NCBI GenBank assembly: GCA_900769665.1 | Contig: CAAGHL010000058.1 | Location: 6,651 to 70,650 of the forward strand | Source of the DNA: Clostridia bacterium | Lineage (GTDB): Bacteria > Bacillota > Clostridia > Christensenellales > CAG-314 | Direction of reading: 5' to 3' | Length of the DNA stretch: 64,000 bases | Shown here: positions 19,109 through 39,795 of the stretch, piece by piece | Numbering within the stretch: the first letter of the stretch is position 1 | How the letters are laid out: each line of letters begins with the position of its first letter | The notes under the pieces: generated by a model | What the model saw: the letters and a program-made list of their open reading frames with translations, nothing else | What the model was told of the DNA's origin: nothing | The model's database searches: none | Made by a program: the position numbers and the translations under genes

Positions 19109-19141
19109 TGGCACAATGTAACAAAAACTTAATACGTACAC

Positions 19142-19181
19142 AAAAATCGCTTACATTTCATGCAAGATGTAGGCGATTTTT
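19142..19181 (+). terminator. Intrinsic terminator closing the 2439-19108 gene string
   Basis: Stem TCGCTTACA / TGTAGGCGA (one G-U pair) followed by TTTTT. An upstream A-run can extend the stem. Confidence 0.7.
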
Positions 19182-19342
19182 GCATTGTATCCGATTGCGT
19201 GCTTGATTTGTCGGGCGTCCGCTTTTCTTTGTATGTTTTTTTAATGTAATGTAAGTGAGCCATGGGACGATTTGTTGCCGTTTGTCGGTAGGTTTTCATA
19301 AAAAACGCGGCATATTGCCCCTGATAAGAACCGAATGTACGT

Positions 19343-19388
19343 AAAAAATACCGTTTGCAATTTTCAAAACGAAAGGCAAACGGTTTTT
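19343..19388. terminator. Second, orphan terminator-like hairpin
   Basis: Perfect 9-bp stem ACCGTTTGC / GCAAACGGT flanked by A6 upstream and T5 downstream. No credible ORF lies between it and the previous terminator. Confidence 0.45.
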
Positions 19389-19486
19389 GTCTGCTTGTTG
19401 TGTGAGTCGTGTGTTTGCAAGGGTGAAAAACAACTGTCGACAACAACAAAATACAAGTAAGTATTGTAGACAGTGTTTTTTTTACC

Positions 19487-20130
19487 TTGGCAAATCCGAC
19501 AGCTACTGTCGAGTGCGGTGCCGACTACACGGCAAAACTGACATTCCGCTACGGCTACGAATTTGACGGTTGCGATTACGCCGACTACGCCGTCATCGCC
19601 GACGCGAGCGGCAAAAACTCTGCTTACGTTACGCAACGTCACCCGTCCGTCGCGAGTTACGGTCACGGCAAAAAAAGTGGAACGTGCGGCGGTAAGCTTC
19701 GACATCAAGTGCAGTATCGTCTACGATTACAACGGCGGTGCGGACAAGGACGGAGAAACAATCAAAACAATCAGTTACCATCTTACGCAATACCAACGCC
19801 CAAATACCGATCCCGCACAAACGCTACATCGCGACGGTCACGTATTGACGGGGCGGAACACACTGCCCGACGGTAGTGGCGACCACGTCGGACCGGGCAG
19901 TAGAGTGACGGTTGCAAACGGTGGGCAAATCACGTTGTATGCCGAGTGGGCAAAAAGTCTTGACCGAGATGACCTGCTGTACATCGTACGCGGTGACGAA
20001 ATTGTGCTTACGGGTTAACGTGGCAAAGGCGACGTGCAACCATTTGTCATTCCTGCCGAAATCGATGGTAAACCCGTTGTGAAAATCGGCGGCTCGTTGT
20101 TGCAAGTAATTGCATCGATTGGTAAATAAA
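19487..20130 (+). pseudogene. Decayed internal fragment of a large surface-protein gene (InlB-B-like module + Flg_new repeat + start of a BspA-type LRR region)
   Basis: No start codon or signal peptide. The reading frame switches around 19610-19640. The Flg_new repeat GHVLTGRNTLPDGSGDHVGPGSRVTV...ITLYAEW has R where the family Trp is expected. An in-frame TAA (20016-20018) interrupts LTG*RGKGDVQPFVIPAEIDGKPVVKIGG. It ends after ~35 more codons. Confidence 0.65.
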
Positions 20131-20136
20131 CTTCTA

Positions 20137-20165
20137 TTGACAGTCGATGTTTGACAACCTAAAAT
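20137..20165 (+). promoter_or_regulatory. Sigma-70/SigA-type promoter candidate P1
   Basis: TTGACA (20137-20142), 17-nt spacer, TAAAAT (20160-20165). Confidence 0.5.
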
Positions 20166-20202
20166 ATATCTTGCATAAAAAGACAACTGACGGTTGTCAA
20201 GC
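20149..20202. promoter_or_regulatory. Inverted repeat / GACAAC half-site cluster (candidate operator)
   Basis: TTGACAACC (20151-20159) and GGTTGTCAA (20192-20200) are perfect inverted copies 32 nt apart. A third GACAAC at 20182-20187 forms a short hairpin with 20193-20198. Confidence 0.4.
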
Positions 20203-20218
20203 TAATAACGGCAAGATG

Positions 20219-20247
20219 TTGAAACGCTTGTTGTCGTTGTGTAAAAT
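20219..20247 (+). promoter_or_regulatory. Sigma-70/SigA-type promoter candidate P2
   Basis: TTGAAA (20219-20224), 17-nt spacer, TAAAAT (20242-20247), 20 nt upstream of ATG 20267. Confidence 0.45.
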
Positions 20248-20266
20248 GTGATACAAGGAGTGTCAA

Positions 20267-21853
20267 ATGAAAGAAGTCATATTTGGAAACGTAATAAGAG
20301 ATTTGCGTAAATCTCAACAAATGTCGCAGGAGGAATTTGCCGAAAGCTTAAACGTGAGCAAACAAGCGGTGCAAAAATGGGAAAACGGTGCAAGTATTCC
20401 CGATATTTCTCATTTACTGCTTATTCATGAAAAATTCGGTATTAGCCTCGATAGATTGTTTTTCGGTGCAAGCGAAAACAATGTGCAAGCAATACGTTTT
20501 TTGCCTGTCAATCCAGACTATGCTACCCGTTCGTTTTGGGACGAGTACAGCCAAAATTTGCTTATCGACTACCGACAATCGACGGAGGAAGGCAAAGATA
20601 TTGCCGCATACAAAAGTCTTATCGAATGTGTAGACGGATTGCCGAACGGCAATGCAAAGCACGACATGTCTGACATCATATACCGCTTGATTGCCGATGC
20701 GCCCGAGCGTGACGGGTACTTATTTGTCGAACCCTCCGACTACGACGGCATAGTTGCTTTAAGCAATGCAAAAACCGACTCAAAGCCGTTAAACGTAGAC
20801 AAAAACAAGCTTGAAGGTGCATTTACGGGACGTATCGTCGGTTGCCTTCTCGGCAAACCGGTGGAGGGCGTTACTCGCGAGGGCATACGCGCAATATTGC
20901 GTGCAAGCGACAATTACCCGATAAAGCGATATATCACTACCAATGATATTATCCCCGAAGTGCCTTTTTCCGATTGCTACTGCGTCGATCGGGTTGAAGA
21001 ATACCCGTTTTCCGACGACGACATCGATTACACTGTGCTTGCACAACGTGTTGTGGACAAATACGGTGCCGACTTTACCGCCGAAAATGTAATCGCCACT
21101 TGGTGCGATCTTGTGCCTCGCAATGTATTTTGCACTGCGGAGCGTGTTGCGTTCAAAAACTACACAGACGGTTACATGCCGCCGTACACTGCAATGCACC
21201 AAAACGCTTTTCGCGAGTGGATCGGCGCACAGATACGTGCCGATTACTACGGCTACATTTGCCCCGGCGATCCTTTCACTGCGGCGGCTATGGCATTTCG
21301 CGATGCGTCGGTATCACACACTAAAAACGGCATTTACGGCAGTATGTATGTGGCTGCGTTGATTGCCGTTGCCGCACGTACGTCAAATATGGAGGAAGCT
21401 ATCGGCGAAGCATTGCAATACATTCCTACGACGTCGCGTATGTACAAGGCGATTAACGGCGTGTTGAAGGATTACTCCGGCGGAGTGACGGAACAAAAAT
21501 GTTTCGACAAAATTTTTGCCGAGTACGACGATTCCGACGTGCATTGCTGGCTGCATGTAATATGCAACGCAATGATTGTAACTGCTGCGTTGTTGTACGG
21601 CAATAAGGATTTTACTCGCACATTGTCGCTTGCCGTATCGGCAGGATACGACACCGACTGCAACGGTGCTACTTGCGGTTCGGTATTGGGCATGATGTGC
21701 GGCATGGAGTGTATTGCGCCCTCTTGGACAGCTGTATTGCGCGGCGGTACACGTACCGACGTACGAGCAAGTGAAAACGTAAAAATTACGGAGTTTGTTC
21801 AAACTGCCGTAAAACATGCAAACATTATAAACAAGGAGGCGAAGAACAAATGA
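20267..21853 (+). CDS. XRE-family HTH fused to an ADP-ribosylglycohydrolase (ARH/DraG-fold) domain (528 aa)
   Basis: HTH MSQEEFAESLNVSKQAVQKWENGASIPD. ARH-family hallmarks GCLLGKPVEG, SDDDIDYT and GYDTDCNGATCGSVLG. AAGGAG lies 6 nt before the ATG. Confidence 0.85.
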   Translation: MKEVIFGNVIRDLRKSQQMSQEEFAESLNVSKQAVQKWENGASIPDISHLLLIHEKFGISLDRLFFGASENNVQAIRFLPVNPDYATRSFWDEYSQNLLIDYRQSTEEGKDIAAYKSLIECVDGLPNGNAKHDMSDIIYRLIADAPERDGYLFVEPSDYDGIVALSNAKTDSKPLNVDKNKLEGAFTGRIVGCLLGKPVEGVTREGIRAILRASDNYPIKRYITTNDIIPEVPFSDCYCVDRVEEYPFSDDDIDYTVLAQRVVDKYGADFTAENVIATWCDLVPRNVFCTAERVAFKNYTDGYMPPYTAMHQNAFREWIGAQIRADYYGYICPGDPFTAAAMAFRDASVSHTKNGIYGSMYVAALIAVAARTSNMEEAIGEALQYIPTTSRMYKAINGVLKDYSGGVTEQKCFDKIFAEYDDSDVHCWLHVICNAMIVTAALLYGNKDFTRTLSLAVSAGYDTDCNGATCGSVLGMMCGMECIAPSWTAVLRGGTRTDVRASENVKITEFVQTAVKHANIINKEAKNK

Positions 21854-23034
21854 ACAAAAAGCAAAAAGTTGCGGCCATTGTAGTCGCATGCGTTTTGTTG
21901 ACATGTTCGGTTGTCGCATTAGTCGTTACGGCTGTTGCGTCTACGGCGGATACTTTTGTGGTGCTGACCCCGTATTGGAAGGAAAACTTCGAGCGTTTTG
22001 CGACAAATCAATCGTATGTCAAACAAGCGTTGTATCTCAATGGTGCAAACGGCATAATCACTGCGGAAAAAAGCAAGGTGATAACGGGCGAGCGTAGTTT
22101 GCTTGTTAGCGGTGACGAAGCGGAAAACGTTGTCGACATCAAGTACGGTACTCTCAATTTGATTGACGGCTCGTACACGCTTAGCATGAACGTGCGTCCG
22201 ATCAAGGCTACGTCATTGACGATTGCCGTACGTAAAAACTATTTGACGGAAAACGCCGATAGTTTTCTCGCTCGGAAACAACTTGCCCTAACGACAAATG
22301 AGGCAGGCGCGGTTACTGCTGTTGCTGACAACGGTATACAAGTGGGTAAAGCGGAAGTCAAGTCGGAGGACGGCGTAGTGTCGCTGACGATAGAGTTTAC
22401 AAAAAACAATACCGACGCATTTGTGTACGTTGCTTTTGGCGGCGAAGGCGAAACGAGTATGGTGATCGACGACATAGTCGTCTACAATCATGCCACATCT
22501 CAAAAGGTGGCAATCAAAGATATCGACGAAAATTACAACAATGCAGACGTCAATCAATCTGTTTTTCAGATGACACATTTTTGGTGTAACTTCGGCGATA
22601 TGATCTGGGACACCAACAACTTCAACAATACAAACAGTGTATTGTACAAGGGTACGTATTACAATTCCAACGGTGACAATATTTTCCTTGGCGGATTGAC
22701 TGCCGACGAATGGACAACCAAGGGTAACACGACCTATCGTTACCAAGTAGATATCGGATTGGAAGATATTTCCACATTGGTATTTACCACTCTCGACAAT
22801 CGCGGTACGGGACAAACATACAGCGAGATTACGTATAGTCGCGGCAGCTGGATAGTGACTGCGAAGGGTGGTATAACGAACTTTACCGCCGAAAAAATGA
22901 ATGGTTTTTGGCGTTTGTCTTGGAATAGACTTACTTCGGACATAGGTAAAGACGAACACTACATGTTTGCTACAAGCGGCGAAGGCGTCGAAGGCAAAAT
23001 TTGGATAGACAATTTTGTCGTTGCGCATTTTTAG
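21850..23034 (+). CDS. N-terminally membrane-anchored protein with two CBM-like beta-sandwich modules (394 aa)
   Basis: ATGA overlap with the regulator stop. AAGGAGG RBS. TM segment VAAIVVACVLLTCSVVALVVTAV. Two modules each end in a CBM4/9-style strand (MVIDDIVVY, IWIDNFVVA). Confidence 0.75.
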   Translation: MNKKQKVAAIVVACVLLTCSVVALVVTAVASTADTFVVLTPYWKENFERFATNQSYVKQALYLNGANGIITAEKSKVITGERSLLVSGDEAENVVDIKYGTLNLIDGSYTLSMNVRPIKATSLTIAVRKNYLTENADSFLARKQLALTTNEAGAVTAVADNGIQVGKAEVKSEDGVVSLTIEFTKNNTDAFVYVAFGGEGETSMVIDDIVVYNHATSQKVAIKDIDENYNNADVNQSVFQMTHFWCNFGDMIWDTNNFNNTNSVLYKGTYYNSNGDNIFLGGLTADEWTTKGNTTYRYQVDIGLEDISTLVFTTLDNRGTGQTYSEITYSRGSWIVTAKGGITNFTAEKMNGFWRLSWNRLTSDIGKDEHYMFATSGEGVEGKIWIDNFVVAHF

Positions 23035-23044
23035 GAGAATGACT

Positions 23045-26000
23045 ATGAAAAAAATAACTTCAATAATATTGGTTTGTGCGTTGCTGATGGCAGTTATCGC
23101 CGTCCCGACCGCGTTGTTGTTTGACGATTGGACAAACGTGGCTTATGCGGCAATCAATGTCAAGTCTACGCTTTCTGCCGAAACTTTTACTTCTGAAGAC
23201 GGGACAAAATTACCGTACAGATTTTACAAGCCCGACGATTACAGCGAAACGAACAGTTACAAGCTATTGCTGTTGCTGCATGGCAAGGACGAACGCGGCA
23301 TGGACAACGAAGCACAAGTGACTCGGCGTGACGCTATGCCTTTTGTCCAAAAAATACTTGCGGACAAACAGTTGAAAAAACAATATTTCATTGTAGTGCC
23401 GCAATGTTCTACGACGGACGTATGGGCAAACGTGGCGGCAGACGGCAGTTACGTTTACAATGCCGACGAACAAACCGCCGCGCAAAAAGCCGTCTTCGAG
23501 TTGTTGATGGACATTGTTAAAAAATATTCCGTGGATATGGCACGTTTGTACGTGACAGGCTACGACAACGGCGCATACGGTGTGTATGATATGCTTGCTC
23601 GATATCCGGGATTGTTTGCGGCGGCACTGCCTATGTCGGGCGGCGCAGACGTCAACCAATACAAGGCAGCGGAAGAAACCGCATTGTGGGCATTCCACAG
23701 CGCAGACGATGTCAGCGGCGGTTACGGACAAAACTTGGCAATGGTGCGCAAGTTGGAATCCATCGGCGCAGGCGTATTGTATACTGAATTCAAGACCGTA
23801 GGTCACAATGCATGGAAGCAAGGTTACACTAACGAAAACGCATTCGAGTGGATGGACGCTCAATGTCGTCGAAATGTGTACTACCAACGCCGTTTAATTA
23901 CTCCCGACAACACGACGAATGGTAAAAATTACACGTTTTTACGTAACGTAGCTAAATTCGGCGCACACAAATCCAACGTAATGGCTCCTACGGGTGGCGG
24001 CGACAAGGACTTGTTTAAGGCAATGACCGATGGTTTGATTACCGCTTCTTACGACACATACACAGGCGATTACACCGACCACGATGATTACTTCGGCTAC
24101 GAATTTGCGTCGAATTACACCTTCAAAAAGGTGGTATTTACAAGCGGCGCAGTGGCTAACGGCGGAGGTTTGTTCGGCGGCGGTGCAAAGGTGCAAGCAC
24201 TTGTAAACGGACAATGGACGGACGTAGTGTTGACGGGTGAAAATCCCTATCCTGTGTTGGGTAACGGCGAAGCAATCGACGTTGAAACCTACAAGGGCTT
24301 TACCGCATATACATTCGAGTTTGAGCCCATTCAAGCTAATGGTATTCGCATTGTCGGAAAAGCCGGCGGTAACGAGCGTTGGACGTCCGTTTCGGAAATG
24401 GAAGTTTATGCCGAATCGACGGTTTTAGACGGCAACATGGCGGCAATCGGAGCACCTAATGTGGACGAAGTGTGGCAATGGAGTACCGACTACTCCAAGG
24501 GACGTGACATTACGCTGATTATCAACGGCGTACTCAATGACAGTTTCGACAACTACGGTTGGAATTTCCAACACGATACAGGTATTTACTATACCTACAA
24601 CGATCTTCACTATTTCAACAAATTGGTGTACACCGAAGGACAGCACTGGGACGAGGGAGGCGGTTGGTTTGCCGAAGGCGTAACGATAAAGGTGCGCAAA
24701 AACGGTGTTTGGACGGCAGTGGAGCTTGAAGAGAGTAGCTCCGATTATCCCGTTGTCGCACAAGAAGAAAAGGCGCCCTTCGACGGTTTTGTTACTTATA
24801 CCTTCAACTTTAACGCAACCGAGGGCGATGCGGTAGGTATCTTCGGCAAGGCAGGCGGCAATCAACACTTTGTGTCTTGTGCGGAACTTGCCGTGTATTC
24901 TGCGGACGTGTCCCCATACGAGGAACCGACAGTCTCCGTCAAGCCTTTCGAGTACTGGCAAATGGCAACAAACGTTACTTACAAGGGTACAGCAATCGTG
25001 TCGGAAACCAATCCTCAAGGCATCGGTTCTCGCGATTACGCAACGGTAATGAACAATGGTTTCTACAATGCCGCAGGTGACAGTTACGACACTTACAACG
25101 GCGATTTCAGTAGACACGACGCATGGTTCGGGTACACTTTTGCCGAGGAACAAATTTTTAACAGTCTTATCTACCAAGTCGGAACATGCTTCGACGGCGG
25201 CGGTATGTTTGCAGGTGGCGCGCGTATTCAAGTGCGTGTAAACGGTGTGTGGACGGACGTTCCCCTGACCACCTCAAATCCCTATCCCGTACTTGCCGAG
25301 GGCGCAAAAATCGACATTAATCAACACCCCGGTTACGAAATTTACCAATTCTTCTTTGCTCCTACCAAGGGCGACGGCGTGCGCGTAATAGGTAGTGCGG
25401 GCGGTGATCAACACTGGTCTTCCGTTGCGGAATTGGTTGTATTTGCAGTAGAAAACGTTACCGATGGTAATGTGAGCGGTACGGCATTGCCCATGGCAAG
25501 CACCGCGCCTAACGGAAGTTCCTGCAACCCTGATCTCGGCGTCATTGTGGACGGCGAAACAAGCGGCGGAAATAAGAATCAATACGACACTTATCAACCC
25601 AATAAGACGGCATGTCAAGAGTGGTATGCGCTAAGCTTCGGACAAACGCACACGTTTACTCAACTTCGCTTTACGGAAGGTATGCACTTTGCTACCCAAG
25701 GCGGTTGGTTCAGCGGCGGAGTAAAGGTTCAGGCTTGCGTTGACGGCGTTTGGAAGGATGTCGAATTGACTACTGCTAACCCCTATCCCGTAATTGAAGG
25801 AACGGCGGATATCGCCGAAAGTCTTTACTCCGCATTTACCACATATGTATTCGATTTCAAGCCGATTACGGCGACGGCGGTACGTATCGTCGGCAATGCG
25901 GGCGGTCTGTCGTACTTTACTTCCTGTGCGGAATTAAGCGTTACTTGTACCGATGTGGACAACTACGAAGGCAAACTGTCCAATTACAAATTTGTTTACG

Positions 26001-29000
26001 ACAAGTCTGTTACCTACACTGACGAAAAAATCCGCGACCTTATCGAAGCGGGTTGGCTTGGTCAAATGTACGGTGTAGTGTGGGGCGCACCCATCGAATT
26101 CAGTTACAAGGGACGTATGGTTCCCGATGAGGAAATACCCGACAGATTGTCTTTAAATCTCAACGACGCATTTGCGCAAGATGACCTATACGTGGAATTG
26201 CCATTTATCAACGCTCTTAATACGGAGGGCATCGACGTATCGGTGGAAACACTCGGAGATTACTTCCGTGATACGGCATTCCCCTTGTGGCACGGAAACG
26301 ACGTGGCGCGTACCAACTTAAATGCGGGTATTCCTGCGCCGTTGTCCGGTAGTTATTTGTACAACTCTTGTTGTGACGACATTGACTGGCAAATCGAAGC
26401 TGACTTTGTCGGTATGATGAATCCCGGTGCGGTTAATCGCGCAGTGGACTTGGGTTTCCGTTACGGACATGTTATCGGTTACGGTGATGGCGCATACGGA
26501 GGGTCGCACGTTTCGGCAATGCATGCCAAAGCGTATGTGGCTAAAAACGTAACTTCCGTTGTTGTTACGGGTATTCAATCGGTCCCCAAGGGAACAAAGT
26601 ATCGTGCGATACTCGACGATGTGTACGATATGTACGTCAATGACGTCAGCTTTGTAGATGCATGGCAACGCATCGAAGACAAGTGGGTAGGCGACGACAG
26701 ATGTCCTCGTGAAGGCTTCGGTCCTACGGCGGCATTCAACATCGACGCCAAACTTGCAGGCGGTTACATCGTAATGGGTATGTTGTACGGTTTGGGCGAC
26801 TTGGAGGAATCCATGCGTCTTGCCATCAAGTGCGGACAAGACAACGACTGTACGCCAAGCACAATCGGTAGTATACTCGGCAACTACTACGGAACTTCCG
26901 TATTCCGCAAGAGTCTTGTGAACAAAATAGACTACAACAACAAATTTTTGTACACTGACGATACGTTACATACGGCTATCGACAAAGTGTTCGAGCTTGC
27001 TAAACTACAAATCGTACAGGCAGGCGGCAAGGTGGAAAACGGAGTGTGGACATTGCCCGAAGAACAAGAAATAGTCACTCCTGAAGTGGAACAGTGGCCG
27101 GATATGCCGAGTATGGACGTTTCCCTCGGTCAAGCCGACAAAAACGTTACGGGCAAAGTCGTGTCTTATCACAAAGACGGTATCGAATCGGTTACTTGGG
27201 ATTTTGGCGACGGTACGATTATGTCTACCAAAGACAGTGTTCAAGGAAATAAGCGCGTTACCGCGGGCGAACAAACCAAGGAAATCAAACCTATCGACAA
27301 AAACAAAACCTACAACATATTGTTTATAGGCAACAGTTACACCTACTACAACCATATGACGGGCATGTTTAAGCGTATTGCCGAAAGTATGGGATACAGT
27401 GTGGATATAGACCAAATAGTACACGGCGGTCACCGTTTGGGCGAGTACGCCGATCCTAACGACAACGCAAATACGGGCGACTACGACGGTAGTGGCAAGG
27501 ACGTTTACGCCGCACTTACCGGAAACAAAAAGTACGACTACGTGTTTATACAAGAGTATGACGCAGGCGCAATGACATCGACGTCCAACTTCGATGTGGC
27601 GGCAACCACGTTAGTTCAACTTATTCGTCAACATGGCGCAACGCCCGTCTTGTATGAAACATGCGGCAAGCATCCTGACGACTACTGGGTGAGTAAGTTG
27701 GGTACTACCAACTTCAAGATGACGTGGGATATTGCTCGTGCAAACCAACAAGTTGCGGACAAACTCAATGTGGCGGTGTCCTACGCAGGACGTGCGACGT
27801 ATTTGGTATTCCAGGACAACAAAGTCAACAATATCGATTTGTACCACACCGACCTCAATCACCCGTCGTTTGCAGGCAGCTACCTGATCGCACTTACTCA
27901 TTTTGCAACAGTGTTCGGTTGCGATCCTACGGAAGTAAAATACGTGCCTACGCCGTCGGATGACATCATCACAAGTTACGACAAGACATGTTCGACCGTC
28001 GGTCAAAACATTACTTCGGAAGTAGCGTCAACGTTAAAGCAGGCTGCAAAAGACGCAGTGTTCTTTACTCCGCAAATACCGTCCTCTTACGAAGGCATAG
28101 AAAGCGGAACGGAACTCGGCGGAACGTATGTAAACGTAAATCACACCTACAAACTGTTGGGTAATTACACTGTAACGCTTACGATAGTCGGCAAAAACGG
28201 CACCGTTGCTACGCGAAAGTTTGACGTAAACGTCACTCTTAGCAACAATCTCGCTTCCGTCGGTACGCCGATCGTGTCGGTAGAAAAGCCCGAAGGCGTC
28301 GGCAGTAAGGACATCGGAGTAATTTGCGACGGAGTGTACGGCAACGGTAATTCCACACAATACGACACTTACAAGGGTGTTAAGACCAACGACTACGATT
28401 ATTTTGGGTATTTGTTCGCCGCGCCTCAGGTAGTCAATACCGTGGAATACACGGCAGGCACTTACTTCGCTAACGGCGGAGGCTGGTTTGCCAACGGCGA
28501 TGTGAAGATTCAAGCATTGCTAAACGGCACTTGGACGGACGTTGCATTGACAAACGACCCGGGCTATCCCGTAGGCGACGATCACACTATGGGCAAACAG
28601 TATGCTACTTACACCTTCAAGTTTGCCGATACTACTTGCGACGGAATACGTATTTACGGACGCGCAGGCGGACCGCAAAAGTTTGCATCGTGTTCGGAAT
28701 TGAAGGTATTCGGAGTGGTTACACCGAGCTTCGCGGCGGACAATGTAGACGTTAAAGTCAATGATGGTGCAAAACTTACGTTTGACAGCAAGAATCTGTA
28801 CGTGACGGAAGTTAAACTGAACGACGCTGTGATAGACATTGCAGACTACACGCTTACGGCCAATACGTTGACGTTTGACTCGGCGTTTTTGGACAAGCAT
28901 ATCGGATTAAACACAGTAACGTTGGTGTTGGAAAACGGTCAAACTATCCAAACGACATTGAATGTCGCTACCGACGGCACAAAACTTGCAAATAAGATTA

Positions 29001-29488
29001 CCCAAGCAAAAGCCATAAACGGCGACAAGTACACCGATTACAGCTTTGACATGCTTCAACAAGCAATTGTCGCAGCGGAAACGATTGCCGCAAAACAAGG
29101 CGCAACGCAAGCTGAAATCGACAACGCAGTAGAGGAATTGCAGGCGGCAATAAACAGTCTCGTAAGCAGGGAAACGGCGGCACGTGCTGCTTTCACTAAG
29201 GCTGTAAACGACATTGCCCAGGCCAAGAGCAAGGCGGAAATGTTTGACAAGATCAACGTCGCAATCAACGCATACAAGCAAGTGACAGACAAAGCGGCAG
29301 TGGCGGAAGATTACGCCAAGTTGCAAGCGGCAGTCGGTCTTTACAACGAGTATGTAACAACCGTCAACACCGAAGTGACGACGGCAAACGACGTGGCAAC
29401 AAAAGTATTCGTAACGGCAGGCGGCGTGACCGCTGTGTTGGCTTGCGTGTACGTAGCAATCAAAAAACTGTTGGGAGGTGCGCTGTAA
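23045..29488 (+). CDS. 2147-aa multidomain surface protein: signal peptide, alpha/beta-hydrolase-like domain, 4 CBM-like modules, ARH-fold domain, PKD, SGNH/DUF4886-like esterase, PKD, 5th CBM-like module, Ig-like domain, FIVAR, C-terminal TM anchor
   Basis: AGGAGA lies 6 nt before ATG 23045. Signal MKKITSIILVCALLMAVIAVP...AYA. Motifs are listed in the domain features below. FIVAR-like YTDYSFDMLQQAIVAAETIAAKQGATQAEIDNAVEELQAAINSL. Terminal TM VTAGGVTAVLACVYVAIKK. Confidence 0.9.
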   Translation: MKKITSIILVCALLMAVIAVPTALLFDDWTNVAYAAINVKSTLSAETFTSEDGTKLPYRFYKPDDYSETNSYKLLLLLHGKDERGMDNEAQVTRRDAMPFVQKILADKQLKKQYFIVVPQCSTTDVWANVAADGSYVYNADEQTAAQKAVFELLMDIVKKYSVDMARLYVTGYDNGAYGVYDMLARYPGLFAAALPMSGGADVNQYKAAEETALWAFHSADDVSGGYGQNLAMVRKLESIGAGVLYTEFKTVGHNAWKQGYTNENAFEWMDAQCRRNVYYQRRLITPDNTTNGKNYTFLRNVAKFGAHKSNVMAPTGGGDKDLFKAMTDGLITASYDTYTGDYTDHDDYFGYEFASNYTFKKVVFTSGAVANGGGLFGGGAKVQALVNGQWTDVVLTGENPYPVLGNGEAIDVETYKGFTAYTFEFEPIQANGIRIVGKAGGNERWTSVSEMEVYAESTVLDGNMAAIGAPNVDEVWQWSTDYSKGRDITLIINGVLNDSFDNYGWNFQHDTGIYYTYNDLHYFNKLVYTEGQHWDEGGGWFAEGVTIKVRKNGVWTAVELEESSSDYPVVAQEEKAPFDGFVTYTFNFNATEGDAVGIFGKAGGNQHFVSCAELAVYSADVSPYEEPTVSVKPFEYWQMATNVTYKGTAIVSETNPQGIGSRDYATVMNNGFYNAAGDSYDTYNGDFSRHDAWFGYTFAEEQIFNSLIYQVGTCFDGGGMFAGGARIQVRVNGVWTDVPLTTSNPYPVLAEGAKIDINQHPGYEIYQFFFAPTKGDGVRVIGSAGGDQHWSSVAELVVFAVENVTDGNVSGTALPMASTAPNGSSCNPDLGVIVDGETSGGNKNQYDTYQPNKTACQEWYALSFGQTHTFTQLRFTEGMHFATQGGWFSGGVKVQACVDGVWKDVELTTANPYPVIEGTADIAESLYSAFTTYVFDFKPITATAVRIVGNAGGLSYFTSCAELSVTCTDVDNYEGKLSNYKFVYDKSVTYTDEKIRDLIEAGWLGQMYGVVWGAPIEFSYKGRMVPDEEIPDRLSLNLNDAFAQDDLYVELPFINALNTEGIDVSVETLGDYFRDTAFPLWHGNDVARTNLNAGIPAPLSGSYLYNSCCDDIDWQIEADFVGMMNPGAVNRAVDLGFRYGHVIGYGDGAYGGSHVSAMHAKAYVAKNVTSVVVTGIQSVPKGTKYRAILDDVYDMYVNDVSFVDAWQRIEDKWVGDDRCPREGFGPTAAFNIDAKLAGGYIVMGMLYGLGDLEESMRLAIKCGQDNDCTPSTIGSILGNYYGTSVFRKSLVNKIDYNNKFLYTDDTLHTAIDKVFELAKLQIVQAGGKVENGVWTLPEEQEIVTPEVEQWPDMPSMDVSLGQADKNVTGKVVSYHKDGIESVTWDFGDGTIMSTKDSVQGNKRVTAGEQTKEIKPIDKNKTYNILFIGNSYTYYNHMTGMFKRIAESMGYSVDIDQIVHGGHRLGEYADPNDNANTGDYDGSGKDVYAALTGNKKYDYVFIQEYDAGAMTSTSNFDVAATTLVQLIRQHGATPVLYETCGKHPDDYWVSKLGTTNFKMTWDIARANQQVADKLNVAVSYAGRATYLVFQDNKVNNIDLYHTDLNHPSFAGSYLIALTHFATVFGCDPTEVKYVPTPSDDIITSYDKTCSTVGQNITSEVASTLKQAAKDAVFFTPQIPSSYEGIESGTELGGTYVNVNHTYKLLGNYTVTLTIVGKNGTVATRKFDVNVTLSNNLASVGTPIVSVEKPEGVGSKDIGVICDGVYGNGNSTQYDTYKGVKTNDYDYFGYLFAAPQVVNTVEYTAGTYFANGGGWFANGDVKIQALLNGTWTDVALTNDPGYPVGDDHTMGKQYATYTFKFADTTCDGIRIYGRAGGPQKFASCSELKVFGVVTPSFAADNVDVKVNDGAKLTFDSKNLYVTEVKLNDAVIDIADYTLTANTLTFDSAFLDKHIGLNTVTLVLENGQTIQTTLNVATDGTKLANKITQAKAINGDKYTDYSFDMLQQAIVAAETIAAKQGATQAEIDNAVEELQAAINSLVSRETAARAAFTKAVNDIAQAKSKAEMFDKINVAINAYKQVTDKAAVAEDYAKLQAAVGLYNEYVTTVNTEVTTANDVATKVFVTAGGVTAVLACVYVAIKKLLGGAL
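23177..23885 (+). other. Alpha/beta-hydrolase (esterase/PHB-depolymerase-like) domain with an altered nucleophile elbow
   Basis: LPYRFYKPDDY...LLLLLHGKDERGMDN; elbow YVTGYDNGAYG where G-x-S-x-G is expected; downstream FHSADD and GHNAW. Confidence 0.6.
23935..25955 (+). repeat. Four tandem ~160-aa galactose-binding/discoidin-like (putative CBM) modules
   Basis: Recurrent pattern YDTYxGD...D(A/Y/W)(F/Y)GYxF...GGG(W/L/M)FxGG(A/V)K(V/I)Q...G(V/Q)WTDV...NPYPV...TYxFxF...G(I/V)R(I/V)(V/I)GxAGG...(S/C)(V/A)(S/A)E(M/L). Approximate boundaries 23935-24412, 24425-24903, 24955-25450 and 25465-25955. Confidence 0.75.
26040..27020 (+). other. ADP-ribosylglycohydrolase (ARH/DraG-fold) domain inside the surface protein
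   Basis: EAGWLGQMYGVVWGAPIEF, AQDDLYVELPF and AIKCGQDNDCTPSTIGSILGNYYG. The central block WQIEADFVGMMNPG parallels GAQIRADYYGYICPG in the regulator at 20267-21853. Confidence 0.75.
27300..27960 (+). other. SGNH/GDSL-type (DUF4886-like) esterase domain
   Basis: Block I YNILFIGNSYTYYN, YDYVFIQEY, and block V DLYHTDLNHPSFAGSYL. Flanked by PKD-like segments (VTWDFGDGT at ~27190; YTVTLTIVGKNG at ~28160). Confidence 0.65.
28238..28718 (+). repeat. Fifth copy of the CBM-like module
   Basis: QYDTYKGVKTNDYDYFGYLF...GGGWFANGDVKIQALLNGTWTDV...YATYTFKF...DGIRIYGRAGGPQKFASCSELKVF. Confidence 0.75.
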
Positions 29489-30123
29489 TGAACAAAAGAC
29501 TACTTGCGGCACTGCTGTGCGTGGTGCTTGCGTTGAGCGTATTTGCTCTTGTCGCTTGTGTGAAAGACCCTGACAACCCCGATAAACCTAATCCCGACAA
29601 CCCTCCGCAACCTACCAAGACGGTGTATGACACCCTTAACGAACTTGCGGCAAAACCGCACGACAACGGCAAGCTGACGGTTGTTACAACGGTTGGCGAA
29701 GACGTACTTACAAGTACTTACACGTTGACGACTAACGCCGACGGAGTAAAGGTGGAGTATGCAATACAAACTCTTGCTAATTTGTCCTTTGAAGAAACCA
29801 CAACGGAACGCATAGTGACTACAAGCGGCAGTTACGTTGTTAAAGACGGCAAAGTGGTACAACAGAACGGTCAAAACTGTGACATAGCGTTGGAAACGGT
29901 GTCTGCACAAGGTATCAAGTTTGACAAAGCTTACTTTGCCGAAGTTAAGGAGTCTGACGGCAAGTTTGCCGCAAAGGTGACGGATGTAAAAGGCTTCCTC
30001 GGCGAAGTTTCCGCAACGGATATGGCGGTGGAAGTGACCTACACCGCACAAGCAATAACTAATCTTGTAATAAACTACAAGACGACAAACGCAACGGTTA
30101 CTATGACCTACGCTTTTGCGTAA
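29488..30123 (+). CDS. Small lipoprotein of unknown function (211 aa), last gene of the ARH operon
   Basis: TAATG stop/start overlap with the giant gene. GGGAGG lies 9 nt upstream. Lipobox FALVAC followed by a Pro/Asp/Asn-rich linker, then a beta-rich body. Confidence 0.8.
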   Translation: MNKRLLAALLCVVLALSVFALVACVKDPDNPDKPNPDNPPQPTKTVYDTLNELAAKPHDNGKLTVVTTVGEDVLTSTYTLTTNADGVKVEYAIQTLANLSFEETTTERIVTTSGSYVVKDGKVVQQNGQNCDIALETVSAQGIKFDKAYFAEVKESDGKFAAKVTDVKGFLGEVSATDMAVEVTYTAQAITNLVINYKTTNATVTMTYAFA

Positions 30124-30320
30124 AACATGTTGTCACAACGGCGTGCAATGCTTGACGTAAAGCTGTTTTGCGGCGCAACAATATGCAATCTACGGTGCGA
30201 CGGACAGCCTCCCACGCTCCGCGGATAAACAATCTTCTTCTCGATTGCGGTTTGACTGCAATCCTCGACAAACGCTCGCCGAGCAAACCACATCGGCACT
30301 GCGGCGTTTGTACCGAAAAC

Positions 30321-30360
30321 GAAACACGCAAAGCGACTACTTGTTGCCTTGCGTGTTTTT
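30321..30360 (+). terminator. Intrinsic terminator candidate
   Basis: AAACACGCAAAG / CTTGCGTGTTT stem (one bulge) followed by TTTT. Confidence 0.45.
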
Positions 30361-30369
30361 GGTTTTACG

Positions 30370-30546
30370 AAAGTAAATCTTTGCCGGTTCGGCATATGGT
30401 TTGTACATGTCCGTAACGAATATTTTGACGTTTTCTCGTTCTTTTAAGTCACGAAAGTAGTCCATTAGGTCGTTTTGCTTTCTGCTTGGTAAAATATCTA
30501 ACACTTTTCCTTTTTGAGGATTACACAAAGACAAGGTAAAGTACAA
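30370..30546 (-). mobile_element. ISL3-family transposase remnant (~60-aa internal fragment)
   Basis: Minus-strand peptide LCNPQKGKVLDILPSRKQNDLMDYFRDLKERENVKIFVTDMYKPYAEPAKIYF matches the conserved central block of ISL3 transposases (..DILP.R....L..YF......V..V..DM...Y). No N- or C-terminal parts and no inverted repeats were recognised. Confidence 0.6.
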
Positions 30547-30595
30547 TATACTTTTCTTGATGGCAATATTTGCTATACTTTGAGCAATATATGTA

Positions 30596-30624
30596 TTTTT
30601 CGTTTTGATGAAAAATGGTAAAAT
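30596..30624 (+). promoter_or_regulatory. Extended -10 promoter candidate for the GH38 operon
   Basis: TGgTAAAAT at 30616-30624. The -35 is weak (TTTTTC, 17-nt spacer). Confidence 0.35.
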
Positions 30625-30678
30625 CAATGGTGAAAATGGGCAAGTGTTTTATCCTGCATTTCAATCTACGGAGACGGT

Positions 30679-33672
30679 ATGACAAATAAGTACGAACGCA
30701 TAAAAAAATTGGTTTCGGTGTTGCAAAACAATCTTTGTCGCAAGCAAATGCAAGTGACGGACATTTTGTATGCGCACACCGACTACAAAACAAACAATGA
30801 CTTGCCTGACAAGTCTGCGCTTGTGCCCTTTAACGACGGCGTTTGGGGCGGTACACCTGACGATCACTATTGGTTTCGTGCCGAGGTGGACGTAGAAAAC
30901 TTACCCGAGTGCATTGCGGAATTGCTTGTGACTACCGGCTACGACGGTTGGAACGAGTGCAATCCGCAAGTTGTGTGCTACGTTGACGGAATAATGACGC
31001 AGGCGCTTGATCGCTTTCATACGACGATGAGTATCGGCGCAGGGCATCACGTGCTGTATTTTTATGCCTACACCGGTATGCGGCTTACGCTGAAGTTGGA
31101 TTTCAAACTTACTTTGCGTTACGTAGACATAGATGCCGAACGCCTGTATTACGATTTGGTTGTGCCGACCGAAGCGTTGGATTTTATGCAGGAAAACGAG
31201 AAGCCATATTTTGACACAATCGACTATCTCAATAAAGCGTTGTGTCTGGTAGACTTTATGAACGTCGGTAAGCCTACGTTTTTTGATACTTGCAAAGTTG
31301 CCGCGAACTACTTTGAACACGAATTTTACGATACGTATTGCAAAATCGGCGACACAAAAGTGGCTTGTGTGGGACATACTCACATTGACATTGCTTGGCT
31401 TTGGACGATACGCCAAACGCGTGAAAAGGCGCAACGCAGTTTTGCCACGGTGCTGTACCTTATGGACAAGTATCCCGATTACAAATTTATGTCGTCGCAG
31501 TGCTACTTGTACAAGGCTGTCAAAGAGGAAAATCCCGAGCTGTACGAGCGTATTAAACAACGTATTGCCGAAGGTCGTTGGGAAGTGGAAGGCGCAATGT
31601 GGGTGGAAGCCGATTGTAATCTCCTTAGCGGCGAAAGTTTTGTTCGTCAAATACTGTACGGCAAGCGTTTTATGCGTGACGAATTCGGCGTTGACAGCAA
31701 AGTGTTGTGGTTGCCTGACGTATTCGGTTACAGTGCCGCATTGCCGCAAATACTCAAGTTGAGCGGCGTTGATACATTTGTTACAAGCAAAATCGGTTGG
31801 AACGATACCAACATGATCCCGTACGACTTGTTCGATTGGCAAGGTGTCGACGGAAGTAAGGTGTTTACCTATTTCCTTACAGCGCAAAACGCTCACCGCG
31901 ACGGACACATTGACCGTTACAGCACCTATAATGCCGAGGCTAATCCGTCGCAGGTTATCGGCTCGTACAATCGCATGCAACAAAAGGACATTACCGACGA
32001 AACGGTTGTTACATACGGTTACGGCGACGGAGGCGGTGGTCCGACCAGTTGGCACATCGAGTACATAAGGCGTATGGCAAAGGGTATACCTTGTGTGCCT
32101 GCAACCAAGTTTAGCACTGTTGCGGAGTTTGTGTCCGACGTCAAACAAAACGTCAAAAGGGCGGGGCGCTTGCCCAAGTGGACGGGGGAATTGTACCTCG
32201 AATTCCACCGCGGAACATATACATCCATTGCCAAAAACAAACGCAACAATCGCAAGGCTGAGTACCTTATGCAAAACTTGGAGTTATTGAGTGTGCTTGC
32301 CGACAAACTGCGCAACGTGGCGGTGCCACAATCGTGGCTTACCGAGCATTGGCAAACAATGCTGACAAATCAGTTCCACGACATTATCCCCGGTTCTTCC
32401 ATTACCGAGGTTTACGACCTTACAGACAAGGAATACGCCGAGTTGTTTGAAAGCGGCAGTAAGTTGCTGACGGAACGCATAAACGCAGTGGTACGTGACA
32501 CTAATGACTGTTTAAGTGGCGAAAACGTGACGGTATTTAACCCTAACGGTTTTGCTGTCGACGGCTATGTGCGTATTTGCGACAAGTATGTATATGTGCA
32601 AAACGTGCCGAGCAAAGGCTTCGGTGCACGGCAAATCATTGCTCCTAAAAGCGGTGTAAAGACGACGGAATACACGTTGGAAAACAAGTACTTCCGTATT
32701 AAGTTTGACCGAAAGTACAACATCGCGCAGGTTTACGACAAACGCAGTAAGCGCAACGTGTTGAAAGGCAAGGCGGAGTACGTCGCATACGAGGACTACC
32801 CGATTTGTTTCGACGCATGGGAATTACGCGATTACTATACAGAAAAGACATATCCCGTGCAGTTTGTGTCGGTTGTTGATGTGGACTTTGGTGGCAAAAA
32901 AGGCAAGCGCATTGTCAAACGTGTCGGCGACAGTACGATAACCACCGACGTGTGCTTGTACGAAATGTCCGACAGAATCGACTTCGACACAACGTTGGAT
33001 TGGCAAAACAACAACGTGCTACTCAAGGCAGTGTTCCCCGTGGACGTAAATGCGACTGCAGCGACGTGCGATATACAATTCGGCAACGTTCAACGCCCGA
33101 CGGTGTGTAATACAAGTTGGGACAAGGCGAAGTTTGAGTTTTGTGCGCACAAGTACGTCGACGTGTCGGAGGGTGACTACGGCGTTGCGTTGATGTCCGA
33201 TTGTAAGTACGGCTACTCGGCTCGCGACAACGTGCTTACCGTGTCGCTTGTTAAGTGTACGACCTACCCCAACGACTCGGTGGACAAGGGCGAGCATAAG
33301 TTTACGTATGCGCTGTGTCCGCACATCGGCGACGTGGCGCACAGCAAGGTTATGCAACAAGCAATGTTGCTAAACAATCCGCTTGTGGCTGTCGACGGAC
33401 AAACGGAAGATATATCGTTTGTGGCGGTTGACTGCGACAACATCGTCATCGATGCCGTCAAGCCTGCCGAGAACGGAAACGGCGTTGTGGTGAGGCTGTT
33501 TGAAAACAACAACTGTACAACCAATTGCACGCTGGCTTTCGGCTTGGACGTGGCAAGCGCAACTATATGCGACTTGTTGGAAAACGATTTGCAATCCGTT
33601 GCTGTGGCAAACAATAAAATTAAGCTTACACTAAAACCGTTTGAGATTGTCAGTATAAAGGTACAATTGTAA
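30679..33672 (+). CDS. GH38 alpha-mannosidase (997 aa, cytoplasmic)
   Basis: GHTHIDIAWLW metal motif, EGRWEVEGAMWVEADCNLLSGES, LWLPDVFGYSAALPQIL and LYLEFHRGTYTS. GGAGA RBS. Confidence 0.92.
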   Translation: MTNKYERIKKLVSVLQNNLCRKQMQVTDILYAHTDYKTNNDLPDKSALVPFNDGVWGGTPDDHYWFRAEVDVENLPECIAELLVTTGYDGWNECNPQVVCYVDGIMTQALDRFHTTMSIGAGHHVLYFYAYTGMRLTLKLDFKLTLRYVDIDAERLYYDLVVPTEALDFMQENEKPYFDTIDYLNKALCLVDFMNVGKPTFFDTCKVAANYFEHEFYDTYCKIGDTKVACVGHTHIDIAWLWTIRQTREKAQRSFATVLYLMDKYPDYKFMSSQCYLYKAVKEENPELYERIKQRIAEGRWEVEGAMWVEADCNLLSGESFVRQILYGKRFMRDEFGVDSKVLWLPDVFGYSAALPQILKLSGVDTFVTSKIGWNDTNMIPYDLFDWQGVDGSKVFTYFLTAQNAHRDGHIDRYSTYNAEANPSQVIGSYNRMQQKDITDETVVTYGYGDGGGGPTSWHIEYIRRMAKGIPCVPATKFSTVAEFVSDVKQNVKRAGRLPKWTGELYLEFHRGTYTSIAKNKRNNRKAEYLMQNLELLSVLADKLRNVAVPQSWLTEHWQTMLTNQFHDIIPGSSITEVYDLTDKEYAELFESGSKLLTERINAVVRDTNDCLSGENVTVFNPNGFAVDGYVRICDKYVYVQNVPSKGFGARQIIAPKSGVKTTEYTLENKYFRIKFDRKYNIAQVYDKRSKRNVLKGKAEYVAYEDYPICFDAWELRDYYTEKTYPVQFVSVVDVDFGGKKGKRIVKRVGDSTITTDVCLYEMSDRIDFDTTLDWQNNNVLLKAVFPVDVNATAATCDIQFGNVQRPTVCNTSWDKAKFEFCAHKYVDVSEGDYGVALMSDCKYGYSARDNVLTVSLVKCTTYPNDSVDKGEHKFTYALCPHIGDVAHSKVMQQAMLLNNPLVAVDGQTEDISFVAVDCDNIVIDAVKPAENGNGVVVRLFENNNCTTNCTLAFGLDVASATICDLLENDLQSVAVANNKIKLTLKPFEIVSIKVQL

Positions 33673-39063: not shown

Positions 39064-39795
39064 TCAGTCGATTTGCGACATAAAATCCCACACAAATTCC
39101 GTTTGCGGATTGCGGAGTAGCTCGTGCGGAGTGCCGATTTGTTCCACCTTGCGATCGTGCATTATGGCAATACGGTCGGCAATGCGTACCGCTTCGCGCA
39201 AGTTATGCGTTGCGTATATAAAGGTTACATTGGTTTGAGCATGCAGTCGTTGCAGTAGAGACAATATGCCTTCGTGGTACATCGGGTCCAGCGCCGACAA
39301 CGGCTCGTCAAACAAGCAAATCGACGGGTGTTTTGCAAGGGCGCGCGCAATGGCAACACGCTGTTGTTGTCCGCCCGACAGGTCGGCGGGTAAACGGGTA
39401 AGCAACATCTGTAAACCGAATTGTTCGGCAAGCTCGCTGACTCTCTTGCGAATTTCGTTGCGTGGATACTTGTTTGCAAAAAGCGGCATGGCAATGTTTT
39501 CGTACACCGTTTTGTGCGGAAACAGCGCATAATTTTGGCTGACGTAGGAAATATCCTTGTCGCGTTGATCAAGCTCCGCTCCGTCGATGCCGTCAAAAAG
39601 TACGCTCCCGAAGTCGTAACTTTCTACTCCGGCAATTACTCGTAGCAACGATGTTTTGCCGCAGCCGGATTCGCCTAGCAGTACCAAAAACTCGCCGTCG
39701 TTTACCGTCAGCGAACAATCGTACAATGCGACCGTGGTGTTCTTTTTGCGGTCGGTGTAACTCTTTTGCAGTTTTACGATTTCAATTTTGCTCAT
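39064..39795 (-). CDS. Short ABC transporter ATP-binding protein (243 aa; MalK-like NBD without the C-terminal regulatory/TOBE domain)
   Basis: Walker A GESGCGKTS, Q-loop VSQNYALFP, LSGGQQQRVAIARAL, Walker B ICLFDEPLSALD and H-loop ATHN. It ends at PQTEFVWDFMSQID, where MalK-type proteins normally continue. The start is taken at MSKIEIV (39795). Confidence 0.85.
   Translation of the reverse strand: MSKIEIVKLQKSYTDRKKNTTVALYDCSLTVNDGEFLVLLGESGCGKTSLLRVIAGVESYDFGSVLFDGIDGAELDQRDKDISYVSQNYALFPHKTVYENIAMPLFANKYPRNEIRKRVSELAEQFGLQMLLTRLPADLSGGQQQRVAIARALAKHPSICLFDEPLSALDPMYHEGILSLLQRLHAQTNVTFIYATHNLREAVRIADRIAIMHDRKVEQIGTPHELLRNPQTEFVWDFMSQID

Follow-up and report, generated by a model that had tools for sequence, protein, structure and literature searches.

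Organization of the cassette

We analyzed a 64,000-nucleotide (nt) stretch from a Clostridia bacterium (GTDB order Christensenellales, CAG-314; assembly GCA_900769665.1, contig CAAGHL010000058.1, positions 6,651 to 70,650 of the forward strand), which is called the window below and to which all coordinates refer. Four tightly coupled open reading frames (ORFs) on the same strand, spanning 20267-30123, encode a regulator that joins a helix-turn-helix (HTH) DNA-binding domain to an ADP-ribosylglycohydrolase (ARH) fold, a membrane-anchored protein (ORF2), a giant surface protein with a second ARH-fold domain predicted to lie outside the cytoplasm, and a predicted lipoprotein (ORF4). The cassette and its boundaries are as follows.

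20137-20247, plus strand: promoter region with two sigma-70-like sites
20151-20200, no strand: candidate operator of the HTH-ARH regulator, a palindrome and an additional TTGACAAC
20267-21853, plus strand: HTH-ARH regulator gene, 528 amino acids (aa)
21850-23034, plus strand: ORF2, 394 aa, whose start overlaps the regulator stop (ATGA)
23045-29488, plus strand: giant surface protein gene, 2147 aa, ATG start
29488-30123, plus strand: ORF4, 211 aa, in a TAATG overlap with the giant gene
30314-30369, plus strand: putative terminator, a hairpin followed by a U-rich run, from folding energy
30340-30627, minus strand: ISL3-family transposase remnant (PF01610, E = 2.8e-9)

A consensus scan of 19000-31000 returned the sites at 20137-20165 (TTGACA-17-TAAAAT; score 11 of 12) and 20219-20247 (score 10 of 12) as the top two promoter-like sites. 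The ATG of the giant gene at 23045 is preceded by AGGAG and lies 10 nt past the ORF2 stop. An earlier reading of this DNA, made from the sequence only, had proposed two near-consensus promoters, four co-directional ORFs coupled by an ATGA overlap, a 10-nt gap, and a TAATG overlap, and an insertion sequence scar at the downstream end. The two promoters indeed rank first and second over the 12 kb scanned, all three junctions are as described, and the scar is the ISL3 transposase remnant. The hairpin (-26 kcal/mol; z = -4.97 compared to shuffled sequences) likely ends the operon as its terminator. The ISL3 remnant, which covers positions 6-77 of the 240-position PF01610 profile and overlaps the hairpin, is the downstream boundary and lies outside the system. 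On the upstream side, the interval between a GtaA-like gene and the promoters (19487-20130) contains ORF fragments in two or three frames, which had no Pfam or BLAST support and no likeness to the Flg_new protein of the window. The decayed gene that the earlier reading placed at this end is thus putative, as the fragments match no family.

Two divergent ARH domains, one in the regulator and one at the cell surface

In Pfam, the regulator matches HTH_3 at aa 10-64 (E = 3.7e-15) and ADP_ribosyl_GH (PF03747) at aa 184-484 (E = 1.3e-46; 160 bits compared to a 26.2-bit cutoff), and aa 65-183 form a conserved linker between the XRE-type HTH and the ARH domain. The regulator profile matches the CylR2, P22 C2, and 434 repressor structures, and topology prediction found no transmembrane (TM) segment in the regulator. 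In the alignment of the regulator subfamily, E200, D250-D252, and D462-T463-D464 are invariant.

The giant protein starts with a signal peptide, an alpha/beta-hydrolase-like domain, four repeats resembling carbohydrate-binding modules (CBMs), the ARH domain, and a PKD domain with an SGNH insert, which are followed by a fifth CBM-like repeat, an X2-like domain, FIVAR, and a C-terminal TM anchor. Its modules map as follows.

23183-23872, plus strand: alpha/beta-hydrolase (3DOH-like) domain, aa 47-276 (phmmer match to 3doh, E = 1.3e-35)
23897-25999, plus strand: CBM-like repeats R1-R4, in tandem, weakly discoidin / F5-F8 type C-like
26051-27034, plus strand: predicted extracytoplasmic ARH-fold domain, aa 1003-1330
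27137-28234, plus strand: PKD domain split by the SGNH insert (SGNH at about 27245-28120)
28232-28759, plus strand: CBM-like repeat R5, from self-alignment
28232-29473, plus strand: R5, X2-like beta domain, FIVAR (28979-29161), helical stalk, and C-terminal TM anchor (29393-29473), from profiles and topology

The surface ARH domain matches PF03747 at aa 1003-1285 (E = 8.5e-20; 72 bits compared to the same 26.2-bit cutoff) and contains the motifs GAPIEF, QDD, DDIDWQIEAD, and GQDNDC. The giant protein has a signal at aa 1-29 (AYA-A) and a single further hydrophobic segment at aa 2117-2143, which implies that the ARH domain is extracytoplasmic. In Foldseek searches with an AlphaFold2 (AF2) model of the domain (pLDDT 92.9, pTM 0.93), the best-matching structures were ARH3, DraG, MJ1187, Tri1, and ARH1 (TM-score 0.6-0.7, ≈13% identity). 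Nearly all of the top 50 matches in the PDB were ARH-family structures, and two were large chloroplast motor complexes. These results uphold what the sequence-only reading had claimed for the two proteins: HTH_3 and ADP_ribosyl_GH in the regulator are both significant in Pfam, every ARH motif quoted for either protein is present, the surface domain lies at about residues 1000-1325 and between a signal peptide and a C-terminal anchor, and its structural likeness to DraG and ARH3 is seen in the best Foldseek matches of the AF2 model.

A sequence search of the regulator and the giant protein against PDB chains returned no ARH match. Profile searches align only three regions with MJ1187, DraG, and Tri1, namely the N-terminal Gly-rich motif and Glu, the DD motif, and DxD at the C-terminal end. 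In the alignment of the surface subfamily, E34, D62/D63, and D282/D284 (domain numbering) are near-invariant, and H99, D128, D130, Q281, and C285 are invariant in 25-52 diverse members of 25-48% overall identity. Judged by its sequence, the surface ARH domain retains the acidic di-metal ligand motifs of DraG and ARH3. Moreover, invariance of residues at such divergence is a pattern typical of an active site. This conservation of metal-ligand and polar residues makes it highly improbable that the extracellular ARH domain serves as a lectin-like module devoid of catalytic activity and that an esterase is the only enzyme activity of the giant protein, even if catalytic decay, as seen in the N-terminal hydrolase domain of the same protein (see below), would be in keeping with such a fate.

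The two ARH domains of the window are 22% identical to each other (E = 4e-14). Their description as paralogous copies is correct in that they are related; at 22% identity and in different subfamilies, they are not the products of a recent duplication. Both contain a QI[ER]AD[FY]xG motif, which would take the place of a GNGxxMR-type motif in canonical ARHs.

Accessory modules of the giant protein

At the nucleophile elbow of the alpha/beta-hydrolase domain, the giant protein reads G-Y-D-N-G (aa 171-179; 23555-23581), with Asp in place of Ser. The same reading is found in the protein of L001, the locus closest to the window among the related loci described below, and the His and the acidic residue are retained in both. 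The L005 copy has neither the Ser nor the His, and a G-L/F-S-M-G elbow is kept in the homologues of L004, L091, P0292, and P0272. The Ser-to-Asp change implies that the alpha/beta domain is probably not a serine esterase in the window lineage. The second hydrolase domain, SGNH (aa 1423-1620), matches 4s1p (E = 3.4e-9), keeps the GNS (FIGNSYT) and DxxH (D-L-N-H-P-S) motifs in alignment with 4s1p, and shows a weak match to Pfam DUF4886. A loop of the PKD domain accommodates this insert: when aa 1401-1692 were spliced out in silico, a full PKD_4 match appeared (46.5 bits, E = 4e-12), and the PKD of P0001 aligned to the spliced domain without a break. The SGNH insert and the replacement of Ser by Asp occur together only in the window lineage and L001, which suggests that one esterase replaced the other.

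Self-alignment revealed five repeats (R1-R5) of ≈170 aa each with 30-42% mutual identity. R4 (24.1 bits, E = 4e-5) and R3 (19.6 bits, E = 1e-3) match F5_F8_type_C (PF00754) below its 28.2-bit cutoff, and R1, R2, and R5 gave no PF00754 match. A profile built from the five repeats found nothing significant in the PDB, where its sole match, to BurrH, was spurious and of low complexity. An R-type repeat flanks the ARH domain in all of the cassette homologues. Thus, the earlier count of five putative CBMs and two esterase-type domains stands for the repeats, which are real, and for the two hydrolase folds, and it must be qualified on two points, since the F5/8 type C matches fall below the Pfam cutoff and the first esterase-type domain lacks its serine nucleophile.

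ORF2 and ORF4

The ORF2 protein has a predicted N-terminal TM segment (aa 4-40), consistent with membrane anchoring, and no match in Pfam or NCBIfam. Its AF2 model, built on an alignment of four sequences, is poor (pLDDT 63). As a hint, the model matches tandem CBM22 (best) and SGBP-B at low TM-scores, and the prediction for ORF2 is a pair of all-beta domains of CBM-like type. Three homologues came from a protein-database search, and tblastn added two of greater divergence, in L004 and L005. All loci examined have the ORF2 homologue placed after the regulator gene and before the surface ARH gene, and among the homologues found ORF2 appears to be confined to this cassette. ORF4 encodes a predicted lipoprotein, whose signal ends in L-V-A-C, with a weak Pfam match to DUF7096. 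By tblastn, ORF4 homologues occur only in L001-L003; the gene is confined to the window lineage and the relative closest to it.

A candidate operator shared with homologous regulators

Between the two promoters lies a perfect palindrome, GACAAC-N5-GTTGTC (20182-20198), which is the sole perfect match to this pattern in the 64-kb window. An additional TTGACAAC (20151-20158) lies partly on the -35 box of the upstream promoter. The palindrome TTTGACAACC-N3-GGTTGTCAAA is also found upstream of homologous regulators across the family, in many loci ≈100 nt ahead of the start codon. In a set of 86 non-redundant upstream regions, GTTGTCAA was the commonest 8-mer that is not A-rich (23 loci). L001 has TTTGACAACCGACGGTTGTCAAA at the equivalent place, and L004 has both half-sites in a divergent arrangement. 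When 1.45 Mb of related loci was searched with at most two arm mismatches allowed, 20 of 24 palindrome matches fell within 400 nt upstream of a regulator gene, and one of the 24 was upstream of a PfkB-HTH-ARH operon. There is therefore good evidence, from comparison of upstream sequences, that the palindrome is an autoregulatory operator, as predicted here.

Recurrence of the cassette and neighbors of the regulator family

Among 8,000 candidates scored, 6,748 matched the HTH_3 plus ARH architecture, and the fusion is present in all of the top 120. In a genome collection with one genome per species, relatives of the regulator occur in at least 593 stretches. The best 80 of these are full-length matches of 41-47% identity, all from Clostridia and mostly from metagenome-assembled genomes, with Faecalicatena fissicatena and Hydrogeniiclostridium mannosilyticum among them and the species of the window itself absent. 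HTH-ARH fusions are thereby present in at least 80 species genomes. All neighbor counts below refer to these best 80 of at least 593, with up to 10 kb of flank each.

The order of regulator, ORF2, and surface ARH gene recurs in L001, L004, L005, and L091, with otherwise unrelated flanks. Compared to the window regulator, those of L001, L004, and L005 are 83%, 56%, and 51% identical, respectively, and over this 51-83% range an ORF2 homologue and then a surface ARH protein invariably come after the regulator gene. L001-L003 have all four genes, adjoining a trypsin-like protease. The surface proteins of L004 and L091 have the order Esterase - repeat - ARH - PKD - repeat - Big_3, and that of L005 has Big_2 - esterase-like - repeat - ARH - PKD - repeat. 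In L034, L025, and L058, a secreted ARH-PKD-repeat protein is encoded immediately downstream of the regulator without ORF2, and three further loci of the 80 have another ARH gene nearby. Chance adjacency was also considered and was rejected in view of this repeated synteny in different flanks.

The sequence-only reading had suggested looking for HTH-ARH genes next to secreted ARH proteins, and such pairs exist in several independent lineages. It had also named no characterized system with this layout and had suggested an enzyme/sensor pair. The layout is not confined to the window, as both families are large and the cassette recurs. At the same time, ≈74 of the 80 loci have no ARH neighbor within up to 10 kb of flank and show mixed contexts. 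The latter result implies that HTH-ARH proteins are a general regulator class, rather than dedicated partners of surface ARH proteins. Other neighbors of the regulator were counted as follows.

DUF2961/GH172: 8 of 80 loci
Ribokinase-like PfkB: 6 of 80 loci, four of them immediately downstream
Alpha/beta esterase like the N-terminal domain of the giant protein: 4-6 of 80 loci
GDSL esterase: 3 of 80 loci
BspA-type leucine-rich repeat (LRR) surface protein: 7 of 80 loci

In L045, L047, L061, L062, L067, L070, and L072, a cytoplasmic GH172 gene lies just upstream on the opposite strand (-1/-2), and in L064, the eighth GH172 locus, it lies four genes downstream (+4). Within this group the GH172 gene is often beside an alpha/beta esterase, a GDSL esterase, and BspA-type LRR surface proteins. 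In L005, a ribokinase gene (5273-6190; TIGR02152, above the equivalog cutoff) is directly upstream of the cassette, and a fusion of a RihA/RihC-like nucleoside hydrolase with an AraC-type HTH (14911-16665) is encoded two genes downstream of it; with this fusion, L005 has a second regulator that is based on a ribosyl-hydrolase fold.

These counts bear on the possibility that HTH-ARH proteins are mainly cytoplasmic trigger enzymes that repress their own promoters, with the surface genes regulated by co-transcription only. Consistent with such a role, the catalytic-type residues are all invariant across the regulator family, most members are solitary and have the operator nowhere but ahead of their own gene, and the window contains a single operator match. 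We nevertheless regard this possibility as unlikely, as a second, secreted ARH protein co-occurs with the regulator in at least seven lineages, well beyond chance, and the ribokinase-like kinase, esterase, and GH172 partners point to a pathway-specific regulator. It departs from the explanation that we prefer (see below) solely in how the ARH domain treats its ligand.

The secreted ARH subfamily and its fusion partners

A HMMER search of 1.84 billion cluster representatives placed about 1,281 clusters (50% identity) in the surface ARH subfamily at E ≤ 1e-30; counts at looser thresholds take in PKD-only matches. The nearest relatives of the surface ARH (40-48% identity) are proteins of ≈500 aa that consist of ARH and PKD or of ARH and a C-terminal beta domain, have signal peptides or lipoboxes, and come from Deltaproteobacteria, Acidobacteria, Verrucomicrobia, and others. 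An N-terminal hydrophobic signal is present in 123 of 143 complete top representatives, consistent with mostly secreted proteins. Type IX secretion system (T9SS) Por_Secre_tail domains in 3 of 52 members suggest Bacteroidota, and the subfamily also occurs in Clostridia. The cassette is an elaborate member of two sizeable, uncharacterized subfamilies of a known fold.

Enzymes fused to members of the subfamily include the glycoside hydrolase (GH) families GH106, GH26 with GDSL, GH43 (two members), and GH32N, as well as alpha/beta and GDSL esterases. Fused binding and anchoring modules include CBM6, CBM3, CBM96, Laminin_G_3 (8 of 52 members), F5/8C, T9SS tails, and choline-binding repeats. This set of partners is typical of carbohydrate-active enzymes (CAZymes) and is the strongest argument for action on an extracellular glycan. 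As a separate observation, P0244 (2390 aa) combines two surface-type ARH domains, three Laminin_G_3 domains, PKD, and FIVAR in one polypeptide.

The fusions also bear on a reading in which canonical ARH chemistry takes place at the cell surface, where the enzyme would cleave ADP-ribose conjugates and the regulator would sense ADP-ribose as NrtR does. Substrates would be extracellular NAD-derived ADP-ribose, poly- or O-acetyl-ADP-ribose from lysed cells, or surface molecules ADP-ribosylated by toxins. All characterized members of the fold act on ADP-ribosyl linkages, the best matches are ARH3, DraG, and Tri1, and the metal-ligand motifs are kept. Furthermore, ribokinase and nucleoside hydrolase neighbors would also suit nucleotide or ribose salvage, and an esterase beside an ARH domain recalls O-acetyl-ADP-ribose turnover. 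On the other hand, both subfamilies are very remote from the solved ARHs, with no phmmer match, ≈13% identity in structural matches, and alignment of the metal motifs only. The fusions of the surface subfamily to GH106, GH26, GH43, GH32, and CBMs, together with anchoring modules of the kind found on polysaccharide-active proteins, do not suit this reading, and five CBM-like repeats in a context of host-glycan degradation are hard to square with a nucleotide substrate. We therefore consider ADP-ribose chemistry at the surface unlikely. A role in toxin immunity (Tri1-like) or phage defense was rejected, as no ADP-ribosyltransferase toxin or defense gene is nearby and the domain partners are carbohydrate-active.

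A proposed function in breakdown of an acylated, furanosyl-containing glycan

The explanation that we prefer, and to which we give an even chance, is that the locus is a self-regulated cassette whose products deacylate an extracellular glycan and remove from it a furanosyl, probably ribosyl, residue. The substrate would be an acylated polysaccharide or glycoconjugate held by R1-R5 and ORF2. The SGNH domain (in relatives, the alpha/beta esterase) would first take off acyl groups, and the surface ARH domain would then act as a metal-dependent glycosidase outside the cell on a furanosyl residue, for which ribofuranosyl or a different furanose bearing a cis-2,3-diol is most likely. A ribosyl-containing product would enter the cell and be bound, and perhaps hydrolyzed, by the ARH domain of the regulator. 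Product binding would alter occupancy of the TTGACAAC-type operator and thereby expression of the whole cassette, including the regulator gene itself.

The evidence for a substrate with furanosyl or ribosyl and acyl groups, an idea already put forward in the sequence-only reading and thus partly supported, is circumstantial, and consists of the ribokinase and nucleoside-hydrolase fusion in L005, the GH172, PfkB, and esterase neighbors, and the subfamily fusions. The GH43 and GH32 fusions would likewise fit a ribose or furanoside theme. For GH172, activity on alpha-D-arabinofuranosides and alpha-D-fructofuranosides is known (PMC10115798, PMC8605356). Bacteroidetes ribose-utilization loci contain ADP-ribosylglycohydrolases (bioRxiv 10.1101/574913), which agrees with the statement in the sequence-only reading that ARH-family genes occur in some such loci of Bacteroides.

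Several results weigh against this explanation. The PDB profile alignments reach the metal motifs only, such that the residues for ligand specificity are not comparable, and the 22% identity of the two ARH domains does not imply a common ligand. The Asp at the nucleophile elbow detracts from the first esterase domain, and the CBM assignment of R1-R5 is weak, as it draws on sub-threshold matches. No transporter is encoded in the cassette, and near the cassette the window has neither a ribokinase nor rbs genes. Moreover, the regulators of the ≈74 loci that stand apart from any ARH neighbor suggest that the ligand may be a general metabolite, in place of a product of the surface enzyme. The gene contexts of three Gram-negative secreted ARH homologues are mostly uninformative; L094 alone of the three is among glycan genes (DUF4838, DUF4434, LacI, F5/8C). 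Finally, our literature search found no published characterization of either ARH subfamily.

The genetic context speaks to yet another reading, in which the surface protein is non-nutritional and remodels or attacks bacterial envelope polymers, its own or those of a competitor, or is mainly an adhesin. Its targets would be ribofuranose-containing capsules or O-antigens, or acylated wall polysaccharides. FIVAR, PKD, X2-like, and membrane-anchor modules in the giant protein, choline-binding cell-wall repeats in homologues, BspA-type LRR surface proteins adjoining related regulators, and the lack of a transporter in the cassette would all fit such a role. However, the wider window is a host-glycan toolkit, with two GH38, GH29, GH20, two DUF4838, GH97, and GH31 genes and ATP-binding cassette (ABC) sugar systems, and a cassette packed among glycan-catabolic genes and sugar ABC systems argues for nutrition. 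In addition, a sugar ABC transporter follows closely after the cassette in L091, the subfamily is fused to GH families for plant and host glycans, and the kinase links imply catabolism. We consider the envelope-directed reading quite unlikely.

A broader form of the glycan-breakdown proposal is that secreted ARH proteins constitute an unrecognized, metal-dependent GH family for furanosyl residues (ribofuranosyl or another cis-2,3-diol furanose) on acylated extracellular glycans, and that HTH-ARH proteins, which occur in hundreds of Clostridia species, are a new class of one-component carbohydrate sensors that read the product with the same fold and act through TTTGACAACC-N3-GGTTGTCAAA. We advance this generalization tentatively, as being somewhat improbable as a whole. 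The giant protein matches no GH family in Pfam, and no ARH-fold GH family appears in the literature searched, which also held nothing on an ARH-fold glycosidase, a ribofuranosidase, or an HTH-ARH regulator.

If the surface ARH is a glycosidase, a fold known only for the reversal of ADP-ribosylation in the cell interior would be extended to extracellular carbohydrate breakdown, and the CAZymes of gut and environmental bacteria would gain a new catalytic scaffold, di-metal and non-GH. Uncultured gut Clostridia abound in HTH-ARH proteins, which are annotated merely as "ADP-ribosylglycohydrolase family protein" and could be the means by which these organisms sense nutrients that contain ribose or furanose. 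The operator and candidate regulons make this family experimentally tractable. The cassette itself is compact, as it comprises four genes under one promoter region and one operator, and its domains are directly clonable.

Comparison with characterized systems

DraG, ARH1, ARH3, and Tri1 (PF03747) share with the modeled surface domain the all-alpha ARH fold, and with both window domains the Gly-rich motif with Glu, DD, and DxD metal motifs. In contrast to these intracellular enzymes, which act on ADP-ribosyl-proteins or poly-ADP-ribose, the copies in the window are predicted to be extracellular amid CBM-like and esterase modules, or are fused to an HTH domain.

The rus loci (bioRxiv 10.1101/574913) resemble the loci described here in combining ARH genes with ribokinases, nucleoside hydrolases, esterases, and GHs for nutrient scavenging, and their ARH proteins are likewise uncharacterized. 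They differ in being SusC/D-based polysaccharide utilization loci of Bacteroidetes under RusR or LacI regulators, whereas here the host is of the Clostridia type, one ARH domain is in the regulator, and the ARH enzyme belongs to a surface protein of 2147 aa with a membrane anchor.

Among studied operons, the one that comes closest by pairing an ARH protein with a PfkB kinase is E. coli yegTUV, which is controlled by GgaR/YegW (PMC10819704). It is a small, self-contained operon, the single target of its regulator, and encodes the ARH-family protein YegU, the kinase, and also a nucleoside-type transporter. Unlike the HTH-ARH cassette, yegTUV has a separate GntR regulator that senses ADP-glucose, its ARH protein is cytoplasmic, and there is neither a surface enzyme nor an HTH-ARH fusion.

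The multi-modular surface CAZymes of Gram-positive bacteria, in which a GH is combined with CBM32, FIVAR, or PKD modules and an anchor, are similar to the giant protein in having a signal peptide, catalytic modules with discoidin-like repeats, Ig-like spacers, FIVAR, and an anchor. By contrast, the central module here is of the ARH fold, no recognized GH is present, and the SGNH domain is inside a PKD domain.

One-component regulators with enzyme-derived sensor domains include NrtR, which has a Nudix fold and responds to ADP-ribose, ROK repressors, and RpiR/SIS proteins. They have in common with the HTH-ARH regulator a DNA-binding domain, an enzyme fold that binds the sugar or nucleotide ligand of the pathway, and autoregulation through palindromic operators, of which ligand binding and autoregulation are predicted here. 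The HTH-ARH regulator differs in that its sensor would be an ARH fold on an XRE-type HTH, with catalytic residues that, unlike in most of these proteins, are fully conserved. To our knowledge, no regulator that combines an ARH sensor with an XRE-type HTH has been characterized.

Other genes of the window

Several large ORFs of 480-1330 aa in the window have no Pfam match (36714-38855, 46038-49127, and 53841-57833), as do further ORFs at 7666-9132, 12749-14491, and 42092-43843. These ORFs sit among the GH38, GH29, GH20, DUF4838, and ABC sugar genes and may encode additional glycan-active or glycan-binding proteins. The only sizeable minus-strand genes of the window with Pfam support are those for an AraC-type regulator (51303-52175) and an ABC ATPase. 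The latter gene (39064-39873, minus strand) overlaps the start of a plus-strand ORF at 39651-40304 by ≈220 nt.

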